Assembly: GCF_003018255.1 (NCBI RefSeq)
Contig: NZ_CP027440.1
From: Escherichia coli
GTDB taxonomy: Bacteria; Pseudomonadota; Gammaproteobacteria; Enterobacterales; Enterobacteriaceae
Reading direction: 5' to 3' (one strand)
DNA length: 64,000 bases
This document shows, piece by piece, positions 18,744-21,700 of the stretch. Position 1 is the first letter of the stretch. Each line of letters opens with the position of its first letter. Made by a program: the position numbers.

Positions 18744-21700
18744 TTAATGGCACATCACCCGTGCGCCTCTTATCTGGCGCTTACTCGCCCTTTTTCGCCG
18801 CCTGAATATACAGCATCTCCAGCGCCAGCGTCGCCGCTGCCAGAGCGGTGATTTCCGACTGATCGTATGCCGGAGCCACCTCCACTACGTCCATCCCAAC
18901 GATGTTGAGATCTTTCAGGCCGCGTACCAGTTTAATGGCGCGATCGGAGGTCAGGCCGCCAATTACCGGCGTACCGGTGCCTGGTGCAAATGCAGGGTCC
19001 AGGCAATCGATATCAAAGGTCAGGTAAACCGGCATATCACCCACAATCTGTTTCACCTGGGCGATAACGTCATCCACGCTGCGATCGTTCACCTGGCAGG
19101 CGTCCAGCACGGTAAAGCCGTTGTCTTTATCAAACTCGGTACGAATACCAATCTGCACGGAATGATTCGGGTCGATCAGACCTTCTTTCGGCGCGGTATA
19201 GAACATGGTGCCGTGGTCAAATTCACAACCGTTCGCATAGGTATCGGTGTGGGCGTCAAAGTGTACCAGCGCCATTTTGCCGAAATGCTTCGCATGAGCA
19301 CGCAGCAGCGGCAGCGTAACAAAGTGGTCACCACCGAAGGAGAGCATACGCTTACCGGCAGCCAGCAGCTTCTCGGCGTGTGCCTGCAGCTTCTCGCTCA
19401 TCTCACGGGCATCGCCGAAGGCATATACCAGATCACCGCAGTCCACCACGTTCAGGCGCTCACGCATGTCGAAATTCCACGGGAAGCGGTTGTGTTCCCA
19501 GGCCAGATTCGTCGAAACCTGACGGATCGCTGCCGGACCGTGGCGCCCCCCCGCACGGCCAGAAGTGGCCATATCGAACGGCACGCCAGTAATCACCCAG
19601 TCAGCATCGCTGTCATACGGCTGGAAGTTCATCGGCAGGCGTAAAAAACCAAAGGCGTTGGAAACCAGTGAGTTATCGTATTGATGACCTAAGGTGCTCA
19701 TGGATGGACTCCTATTACAAAGTCGATATAAAAAAACCCTTCCGCGTCGTTAGGCCCGACGAGGAAGGGTTGGATTTGCGAAACACAATTTTGTGCTAAT
19801 TATCGCCTTAAATGGGCGAGGCATCAAGCGAGGTTGCTATTTCCGACACGGTGGCGGCGCATAGCCATTGTTATCTGCCGGAAAGGCTTGTCCAGAGCAC
19901 GGCGGCAGCGCGTTTTGCGCCGGGCCTTGTAATTCAAAGGCGGCAAAGCCGATTACACCGGTATTACGCACATCGCCTTGCGCCGAATTGGCTGCGTAGG
20001 AATCAGCAACGTTGGCGAACTGAAAAGCCGCTTCGGTATGTTTATCTTTGCGGAATCCTTTAATCGCTAACGAATCTCCGGCATTCACAATATAGCCGTT
20101 GTTATTCAGCGAACCTTGCTTGCCGTTCAGCACATCCAGGCCATCAACCGTAGCAACGATCTCGTAGTTGGTGTTACGACTGTAATTGCGGACATATAAT
20201 TGATAATTCATTCCTACTCTGGCATGGACAATATAGCGTGGTTCATTATTTGACGAATCATAAACCCGCGTAATAGGTAGAGAATTAAAATTACCATCGC
20301 GAATAGCATATTCAAGTTCGTTAATACGAATGCTATAAACGCGGTCATAGCCGGAAGGAACAGTAGTCGAATAACTAATAACGATCATCTCTGCCGGATC
20401 GCGCCAAGCTCGCTCAGCAGATACGCCCTGAACCGTTGAGTGCACATCCCCACCCCAGGCGGTGCCGACATTGCCTGATGCACTGCTATTATACTGCGCA
20501 TTACTGGAACAACCGGCCAGCAGCACGGCTAATGCTATCAACGCGCTACGTACTTTCCCTTTTTTCATAACCGTTCCCTCTGCATTTAATTAATGCAGCG
20601 ATTGTAGGGAGATTATTTAATAAGAAAAGCAGCTAAATTATTTTTAAGAATATATAAAAAGAAAGCGGGCCGATTTACGTAAATAAATCGACCCGCCAGC
20701 GGAATAATCTTAATTATTCATCTTCAAGATAGGTATAACCGTACAAACCTGCCTCGAACTCTTCAAGGAACTGTTGTTGCAGTTCAGCATCAAGATCGGT
20801 TTTCTTCACTTGATCACGGAACTGGGTTAACAACGTTTTCGGATCGAGCTGTACATATTGCAGCATATCCGCCACGGTATCGCCTTCGTCAGACAGTTCT
20901 ACTTCTACGCTGCCGTCAGGGAAGACGAACACGTCAACCGCTTCGGTATCACCGAACAGGTTGTGCATGTTGCCGAGGATCTCCTGATATGCGCCGACCA
21001 TGAAGAAACCGAGCATCGGCGGATTCTCTGGATCGTACTCCGGCATTGGCATTGTCGTGGCAATACCATCACCATCGATGTAGTGATCAATAGCACCGTC
21101 AGAATCACAGGTAATATCCAGCAGCACAGCGCGGCGCTCCGGCACTTGATCCAACCCTTCCAGCGGCAGAACCGGGAACAACTGGTCGATCCCCCATGCG
21201 TCCGGCATCGACTGGAACAGCGAGAAGTTGACGTACATTTTGTCAGCCATACGTTCCTGCAGCTCGTCGATAATCGGACGATGCGCACGGTTTTGCGGAT
21301 CCAGTTGCTTCTGCACTTCATGGCACATGCTCAGATAGAGTTGTTCTGCCCATGCACGTTCTTGCAGGCTAAAGGTGCCGGAAGAGTAGCCGATATGAAT
21401 ATCGTGCAGATCCATCTGGCTGTCGTGTAACCATTCACGCAGAGAACGACGAGTTCCCGGTTCGTGCATCTCCTGCCAGGTTTCCCACATGCTTTGCAGG
21501 GCGCGCGGTGCGTCTTCTGCAGGCGCGGTCGGCACCGTGTATTCGTTACGTTCCACGCCGATGATATTCGACACCAGCACGGTGTGATGCGCAGTCACCG
21601 CACGACCCGACTCGGTGATTACCGTCGGATGTGGCAGACCATTTTCTTCACACGCATCACCAATCGCCCAGATGATGTTGTTGGCGTATTCATTGAGGCC

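Follow-up and report, generated by a model that had tools for sequence, protein, structure and literature searches.

Sequence comparison points to an ancestral lipoprotein gene between speA and speB that K-12 strains of Escherichia coli lack

The speA-speB interval

The stretch of DNA considered here, hereafter the window, comprises 64,000 nucleotides of the Escherichia coli contig NZ_CP027440.1 and carries the gene order tkt-loiP-speB-speA-yqgB-metK. Between speA and speB, both on the minus strand, lies a gap of 1,012 bp (19702..20713) that contains one long open reading frame (ORF) encoding a putative lipoprotein of 243 residues (Table 1). Comparisons across the Enterobacteriaceae show this gene, written lip in the gene orders below, to be genuine, maintained by selection, and ancestral at the site it occupies.

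The ORF begins with MKKGKVRSALIALAVLLAGC at the earliest in-frame start codon following a stop, ends with ...PPCSGQAFPADNNGYAPPPCRK, and is preceded by a GAGGGA Shine-Dalgarno sequence 7–12 nt 5' of its ATG. The mature protein contains 10.3% Asn, 8.9% Ser, 8.9% Gly and 6.2% Tyr. The guanine-plus-cytosine (GC) content of the ORF is 0.489 and that of its third codon positions (GC3) is 0.459, compared to a GC3 of 0.655 for speB and 0.621 for speA. Across the 54 long ORFs of the window, GC3 is 0.572 with a standard deviation of 0.057, and the lipoprotein ORF is the third lowest. The original prediction, made from the sequence alone, had described a 243-residue ORF with a clear lipoprotein signal, a mature part rich in Asn, Ser, Tyr and Gly that ends in a Cys-containing tail, a GC content below that of the flanking polyamine genes, and an unknown function. 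These observations were reproduced by the LAGC lipobox with Ser at the +2 position, by the composition and C-terminal sequence, and by the GC3 values; with respect to function, neither a family match nor a study of the gene was found.

Ancestry of the lipoprotein gene

The order speA-lip-speB is present in E. whittamii and two cryptic Escherichia clades, in three Citrobacter species, Kluyvera georgiana, Klebsiella aerogenes and K. spallanzanii, and in Intestinirhabdus, Phytobacter, Kosakonia and an Enterobacter sp. Entomohabitans teleogrylli shares this order with an extra ORF in between. This ORF of 295 residues lies between speA and lip (locus extract 4637-5524), and the speA-speB spacing in this species is 2,459 bp. 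In E. albertii, lip-speB is found at the end of a contig, and in Salmonella, speA-lip is followed by a sugar-metabolism island. An E. fergusonii label is carried by one sequence of the E. coli 90% cluster, which is known by this label, not by its context. Overall, the gene is located between speA and speB, or right after speA, in at least nine enterobacterial genera other than Escherichia.

The identity of the lipoprotein to its counterpart in the window drops as phylogenetic distance grows, from 95% within Escherichia to 72–76% in Salmonella, Citrobacter and K. spallanzanii, and to 53–66% in Kluyvera, Kosakonia and Entomohabitans; SpeA is 94–100% identical throughout. In comparisons with E. 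whittamii and a cryptic Escherichia clade, the synonymous divergence (dS) of the lipoprotein gene is 0.31, with values of 0.27–0.32 for speA and 0.18–0.25 for speB. The ratio of nonsynonymous to synonymous divergence (dN/dS) of the lipoprotein gene in the same comparisons is 0.076–0.080. This low ratio, the broad conservation, and the presence of an ORF with a Shine-Dalgarno sequence together indicate a real gene under selective maintenance; the dN/dS and the breadth of conservation rule out that the ORF is not a real gene.

A search around the gene for flanking direct or inverted repeats, a target-site duplication and terminal inverted repeats returned short repeats at chance level only, and no integrase, transposase, insertion sequence (IS) or tRNA gene lies between speB and speA in the window. 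The base composition does deviate from that of the window; however, since the gene is vertically inherited, a deviant GC3 is not by itself diagnostic of import. The low value fits a weakly codon-biased envelope gene more than a recent acquisition.

A survey of 5,426 complete E. coli genomes identified two arrangements. The whole 1,012-bp segment is present in 3,550 genomes with 97–99.7% nucleotide identity, and the K-12 junction, in which speA and speB are 137 bp apart, is present in 1,867. The K-12-type 137-bp spacer was itself found in 1,870 genomes at an identity of at least 98%, with zero intermediates. This one haplotype without the gene is shared by approximately 35% of E. coli, K-12 and B-type laboratory strains among them. 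The near adjacency of speA and speB in K-12, on which the original prediction had drawn, was confirmed by this spacing, and no ORF lies between them there.

The 137-bp spacer of K-12 corresponds by homology to the one 3' of the lipoprotein gene. It has the same promoter-like element (TTGAAx-17-GATAAT, with TTGAAT-17-GATAAT given for K-12) and the same hairpin, and its 77 bp nearest speB are identical to the window. With the two spacers aligned in this way, the missing segment extends between the stop codons of speA and lip, a length of ~875 bp that includes the speA terminator and the entire lipoprotein gene. Synteny, matching dS, the lack of mobility signatures and the homology of the K-12 spacer to the downstream spacer all show that the gene is ancestral at the speA-speB site in Enterobacteriaceae. 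By the same comparisons the K-12 state is derived, by deletion or allelic replacement, the gene having been lost in part of E. coli.

Among the few remaining E. coli genomes is one with an IS1-disrupted copy: IS1 interrupts the lipoprotein gene of strain 23CRST038 (locus extract 3636-4822). On the far side of IS1 are actS, tRNA-Gly and ygeQ in place of speA, so an IS1-mediated rearrangement has taken place. A truncated E. coli allele of 174 residues is represented by 448 member sequences, and degenerate copies were found in Shigella dysenteriae (decayed), Klebsiella (frameshifted) and Salmonella Kentucky (truncated). The other side of speB differs as well. After speB, O111:NM and another strain have dagR (locus extracts 1-1321 and 1-2322), as opposed to loiP-tkt in the window and K-12, which makes this a second variable segment bordering speB.

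Transcription signals

A strong terminator right after speA, a -10-like hexamer before the lipoprotein gene and a second hairpin after it do not suit a component of a speA-speB operon. From these three signals, the lipoprotein gene appears to form its own hairpin-bounded transcription unit between speA and speB. The speA terminator has a predicted folding free energy (dG) of -23.4 kcal/mol (z -4.9) and 0 of 200 shuffled sequences folded as well. Compensatory changes preserve its stem in Citrobacter, Klebsiella, Kosakonia and Salmonella. In the AT-rich region that follows, a TAnnnT hexamer is found at the position of the -10-like hexamer in 13 aligned enterobacterial spacers. A near-perfect palindrome, TGCATTAATTAAATGCA, is situated between this hexamer and the Shine-Dalgarno sequence; it is present in Escherichia only, which ruled it out as a conserved operator.

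The hairpin after the lipoprotein gene lies 66 nt 3' of the ORF (dG -24.4 kcal/mol, z -4.8, 0 of 200 shuffles as stable). It is identical in K-12, a strain without the lipoprotein gene, and is positioned downstream of the speB promoter-like element, so it is not peculiar to the lipoprotein gene. The original prediction had assigned one hairpin terminator to the lipoprotein gene (19737..19769) and a separate one to speA (20665..20696); both are indeed strong, but the former is not specific to the gene to which it had been given. The hairpin may be read as the terminator of the lipoprotein gene, or of speA in K-12, that also lies within a presumed speB leader.

The region upstream of speB (19728-19827, minus strand) presents a promoter-like element followed, ~25 nt on, by the terminator-like hairpin. 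The promoter-like element, as TTGAAG/GATAAT, is kept at the same spacing in K-12 and at least 10 genera and is probably the speB promoter. The inner stem-loop of the hairpin, UCGUCGGGCCUAACGACG, is almost invariant among genera while the spacer around it diverges, and the outer stem shows compensatory changes. A search of the intergenic regions against Rfam matched no family. Besides acting as a terminator, the element looks like a conserved speB leader or attenuator, or a short RNA; it is missing in Phytobacter and Kosakonia.

Table 1. Features in and around the lipoprotein gene of the window
Feature	Position	Strand	Description and source
speA intrinsic terminator	20664..20697	-	15-bp stem, 4-nt loop, then UUUCUUUUUAU (U-rich tail); terminator scan
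AT-rich upstream region of lipoprotein gene	20569..20663	-	GC 0.34
-10-like hexamer	20601..20606		TACAAT
Near-perfect palindrome	20581..20597	-	TGCATTAATTAAATGCA
Shine-Dalgarno sequence	20575..20580		GAGGGA
Lipoprotein coding sequence	19837..20568	-	243 residues and stop; RefSeq WP_000758903.1-type 'hypothetical/membrane protein'; ORF list
Signal peptide and lipobox, residues 1-20	20509..20568	-	MKKGKVRSALIALAVLLAG followed by Cys; Cys20 predicted lipidated; ORF list
Globular all-beta domain, residues 33-215	19924..20472	-	AlphaFold2 model and conserved columns
C-terminal tail, residues 216-243	19840..19923	-	Variable linker, then (A/P)FPxD...(Y/F)AxPP motif
Promoter-like element, 3' of lipoprotein stop codon	19799..19827	-	TTGATG-17 nt-GATAAT; promoter scan
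Hairpin	19728..19771	-	CCCUUCC-UCGUCGGGCCUAACGACG-CGGAAGGG and U7 run; hairpin without the U7 run 19735..19771; inverted repeat I1

Signal peptide, predicted fold and C-terminal tail

The amino terminus has the features of a classical lipoprotein signal peptide, with an n-region (MKKGKVR) that contains three Lys and one Arg, an h-region (SALIALAVLLA), and an L-A-G-C lipobox at residues 17–20. An equivalent n- and h-region is seen in all full-length homologues, and Cys20, where lipidation is predicted, is invariant in 48 of 48 aligned homologues. In Enterobacteriaceae, Asp at the +2 position serves as an inner-membrane retention signal. The +2 residue is Ser in the window lipoprotein and S, A, T, Q, N or M in 28 aligned homologues, with Asp in 0 of 28. 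Because Asp is never observed, the protein is predicted to be sorted to the outer membrane by the Lol system.

An AlphaFold2 model was built from the 48-sequence alignment and had a mean predicted local distance difference test score (pLDDT) of 82.7 and a predicted template modelling score (pTM) of 0.75. The model contains 15 strands or helices. The pLDDT is mostly above 90 over residues 33–215, and above 88 in almost all 10-residue blocks of residues 31–210. Confidence is low for the stretch after Cys20 and for the last 28 residues. Sequence motifs identified in the domain from the family alignment are GTxWGE, YEIVATVDGLDVLNG, GFRK and NxGVIGxAxF, and the invariant polar and aromatic residues are W38, R53, Y66, Y122, N128, E136, D142, Y159 and R173. 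The model supports, in part, one compact β-sandwich of ~180 residues for which no solved relative was recognized.

Two flexible segments flank the predicted domain. The tether following the lipidated Cys is variable, of low complexity, and ranges from ~10 to ~150 residues across the family, with ~12 in E. coli. The long homologues (330–384 residues) revealed no fused domains; their extra length is low-complexity linker. The C-terminal tail has a pLDDT of 44–49 and for this reason is not considered to pack on the domain. It nevertheless holds residues that are invariant or nearly so among the 48 sequences (F229, P230, A237, P239 and P240). The motif they belong to often ends in Tyr, and is retained even in the Myxococcota-like long homologues. 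In Enterobacteriaceae only, Cys223 and Cys241 bracket the tail, and a periplasmic disulfide could form between them.

Family distribution and genomic contexts

The lipoprotein corresponds to the E. coli protein RefSeq WP_000758903.1 / UniProt A0A1Q4PKQ4-type, which is already annotated as a hypothetical lipoprotein, and the Salmonella equivalent at the same locus has 74% protein identity. A first search identified 289 homologues. An exhaustive profile search with clusters built at 50% identity yielded 4,188 cluster representatives at E ≤ 1e-3, and 3,244 of these still passed at 1e-10. Members were found in Providencia, Proteus, Gilliamella, Neisseria, Kingella and Iodobacter, in Pseudomonas, Acinetobacter, Moraxella, Halomonas, Variovorax, Comamonas, Ralstonia and Burkholderia, and in Paracoccus, Inquilinus and Myxococcota. 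All are named 'hypothetical', 'lipoprotein' or 'membrane protein' in their source records.

Searches against characterized families returned little. Pfam matched neither the query, at a cutoff as permissive as E ≤ 10, nor any of 48 members at E ≤ 0.001. Matches in NCBIfam and PHROG were at the level of the signal peptide with E-values of 0.01 or greater, those in NCBIfam being the signal peptides of other lipoproteins, and PADLOC gave no match. The PDB contained neither a sequence-profile match nor a significant structural match for the domain, and among the 50 matches listed from a Foldseek search against AFDB50 there were unnamed family members only. From the numbering of neighbouring genes, the locus tags are likely to be ECs3813 (O157 Sakai), c3523 (CFT073) and STM3085 (Salmonella). 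The sole literature match was the naming of STM3085 in a list of peptide nucleic acid (PNA) off-target genes (PMC3928365); no relevant paper was found for ECs3813 or c3523. Although the gene itself has been annotated, it belongs to a large family that is uncharacterized and structurally unassigned.

The ORFs of 91 loci were clustered all-against-all and the neighbours were annotated for 12 clades. No neighbour family recurred from one clade to another. One apparently shared neighbour cluster was rejected since it proved to be an antisense ORF of the lipoprotein gene itself in high-GC genomes. An association with polyamine genes is not seen wherever the family occurs. While speA or speB is nearby in the Enterobacteriaceae loci, neither lies within 6 kb in any of ~60 loci from outside the Enterobacteriaceae (0 of ~60).

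The contexts that were found instead are heterogeneous. In ~25 Variovorax/Comamonadaceae loci the gene lies within the his operon as hisD-lip-orf115-hisC, where orf115 is a conserved 115-residue ORF without a Pfam match that comes after the family member (locus extract 6001-7171). Other arrangements are metJ-lip in Providencia, map-lip in Proteus, hybE-lip in Enterobacillus, thrS-lip-recO in Gilliamella, lip-mltG in Neisseria and lip-ahcY in Ralstonia. On a Myxococcota-like contig the gene follows dapF, an aminotransferase, an Orn/DAP/Arg-decarboxylase-family gene, ndk and an unknown ORF. From the heterogeneity of these contexts and the lack of a shared neighbour family, the lipoprotein gene is a stand-alone unit, tending to be located near genes of housekeeping biosynthesis.

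A possible pattern was noted after the fact: several contexts touch methionine, S-adenosylmethionine (SAM) or amine genes (metJ, map, ahcY and the Orn/DAP/Arg-decarboxylase-family gene), and in the window metK is two genes beyond speA (23485-24639). This recurrence may reflect nothing other than housekeeping neighbourhoods.

Additional copies were found in two enterobacterial genomes. Trabulsiella guamensis has a 40%-identical paralogue between a DUF1161 (ynfD-like) gene and a UPF0257 (ynfC-like) gene (locus extract 6001-6759). Citrobacter sp. 18056 has a 64%-identical copy away from speA and speB, near transposases, in a same-strand cluster of phospholipid type that encodes a CDP-alcohol phosphatidyltransferase, a CTP transferase, an acyltransferase, a PAP2/DSPc phosphatase and a DUF4026 protein. 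A record labelled Chryseobacterium sp. 18061 has match statistics equal to those of the Citrobacter copy and clusters with it; because of this, the record is probably mislabelled or contaminated.

Proposed role

Taken together, the best explanation is that of an ancestral, selectively kept lipoprotein gene that was lost in one E. coli haplotype and would encode a dispensable, non-enzymatic binding or adaptor lipoprotein of the envelope. We assign this reading a probability of roughly 0.7. After lipidation at Cys20, the Lol system would send the protein to the outer membrane where a short flexible tether would carry the β-sandwich. The sandwich would bind a ligand or another protein, and docking onto a partner would fall to the exposed C-terminal FPxD...YAPPP peptide. 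The protein would be dispensable under many conditions, as suggested by the K-12-type loss, the IS1-cut copy, and the truncated and decayed alleles, and it would have no part in putrescine synthesis. Its position beside speA and speB would represent historical linkage in a well-expressed housekeeping neighbourhood. The binding or adaptor function is a tentative suggestion.

Several observations weigh against this explanation. The proposed binding or adaptor role is argued from the architecture and from missing catalytic-family signals, and the invariant polar residues R53, E136, D142, D145, R173 and K174 could equally form an active site. Both membrane sorting and topology, whether periplasmic or surface-exposed, are read solely from the +2 rule. 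A consensus promoter scan identified no full sigma-70 site upstream of the lipoprotein gene and, as a consequence, we can only infer a promoter there. The linkage to speA and speB is kept through the whole of the Enterobacteriaceae. In addition, only two genes separate the Trabulsiella paralogue from the position that speG has in the K-12 gene order, which is taken there by a GNAT acetyltransferase, and this may be viewed as a second adjacency to a polyamine gene. The conserved linkage and this paralogue together leave room for a polyamine link.

The loss from K-12 is also less simple than the alignment of the spacers implies. The speA-proximal 60 bp of the K-12 spacer (K-12 locus extract 3078-3137 against window 19779-19836) is only ~60% identical to the allele that carries the gene, a divergence that makes allelic replacement, instead of a simple deletion, a possible origin of the K-12 haplotype. 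Identity jumps abruptly to 100% at the hairpin. When window positions 18781-22690 were compared with K-12, mismatches per 150 bp amounted to 2–6% over speB and approximately the 3' three-fifths of speA, and to 0–2% further upstream. Either the two haplotypes are old or the K-12 one was imported; from these patterns, a simple recent deletion does not account for everything.

Among the alternatives, the lipoprotein could be tied to the arginine decarboxylase-agmatinase pathway, for example by binding or sensing periplasmic agmatine or putrescine, or by aiding an envelope-associated SpeA. Such a tie would suit the family-wide retention of speA-lip-speB even though the lipoprotein evolves ~10 times faster than its neighbours, as well as the Trabulsiella paralogue near the acetyltransferase at the presumed speG position. 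SpeA is also said, in old reports, to be located in the cell envelope. The post hoc set of contexts that touch metJ, map, ahcY and the decarboxylase-family gene may point the same way, but other contexts include the his operon, thrS/recO, mltG and hybE. Furthermore, the gene occupies its own terminator-bounded unit, the ~60 non-enterobacteriaceal loci have no nearby speA or speB, and putrescine is produced through this pathway without the lipoprotein in K-12 and a third of E. coli, as is established and as the K-12 spacer shows. We consider this tie unlikely.

A new type of envelope enzyme or inhibitor, acting for instance on peptidoglycan, lipids or a periplasmic protease, is given a similarly low probability. 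The dense set of invariant polar and aromatic residues would be in keeping with such an activity, as would the adjacency of one Neisseria copy to mltG and the placement of the second Citrobacter copy inside a phospholipid-type gene cluster. However, no similarity to catalytic or inhibitor families was found in Pfam, NCBIfam or the PDB, and the contexts differ between clades.

It is quite unlikely that the protein is a surface-exposed or host-interaction lipoprotein, such as an adhesin or antigen, that is kept by commensals and pathogens and lost in laboratory or host-restricted lineages. The protein does evolve quickly compared to its neighbours (53–76% identity versus 94–98% for SpeA), its gene is missing or degenerate in K-12, in Shigella dysenteriae and in part of Salmonella and Klebsiella, and its tail is bracketed by Cys in Enterobacteriaceae only. 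Yet a dN/dS of ~0.08 gives no whole-gene sign of diversifying selection, adhesin-like repeats or domains were not found, and family members are often found in bacteria that live freely in soil and water, such as Variovorax, Paracoccus, Inquilinus and Myxococcota.

Equally doubtful is the more elaborate proposal of a structurally new family of envelope lipoproteins, defined by a β-sandwich and an FPxD...YAPPPxY docking peptide, that became coupled in Enterobacteriaceae to the arginine decarboxylase/agmatinase route. If true, coupling through periplasmic agmatine or putrescine binding, or through aid to an envelope-located SpeA, would explain the speA-lip-speB order; the family would be widespread in Proteobacteria and Myxococcota and would have been overlooked because K-12 is without the gene.

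Lastly, the view taken in the original prediction, that of a horizontally acquired accessory insertion that splits a speA-speB operon in some E. coli, holds insofar as the gene is variable in E. coli, is absent from K-12 and ~35% of genomes, and has a GC3 ~2 standard deviations under the window mean beside an upstream spacer with a GC of 0.34, but as an insertion it is highly improbable given that orthologous outgroup sites in other Escherichia species and at least nine genera are occupied by the same gene, that within Escherichia its dS is equal to that of speA and speB, that repeats, integrase, tRNA and IS are lacking, and that the spacer of K-12 has its homologue 3' of the gene.

Significance and comparison with known systems

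The ancestry of the gene and its loss in one haplotype correct a natural K-12-centred assumption, in that the textbook picture of adjacent speA and speB genes is the derived state and the ancestral enterobacterial locus has a third gene. Because K-12 is without the gene, the family escaped Keio-type functional genomics, the source of most annotation of E. coli envelope proteins. The family, which exceeds 4,000 clusters at 50% identity and has neither a Pfam model nor a solved relative, presents a cheap target for which a single-gene knockout or one crystal structure would be informative. The practical stakes are modest, as a third of E. coli can dispense with the gene and no phenotype has been linked to it so far.

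Among known systems, tethered outer-membrane lipoproteins such as LpoB, which consists of a disordered linker and a small globular domain, offer one point of comparison. No sequence or structural similarity to the window lipoprotein was found for LpoB-like proteins, and they have no counterpart of the FPxD...YAPPP peptide. The general plan is shared: a lipobox, no inner-membrane retention signal, a variable, flexible linker of low complexity, and one compact domain. Also counted among the nearest known systems are the peptide-binding β-sandwiches of the MATH/TRAF type, as represented by SPOP, USP7, TRAF1 and TRAF6.

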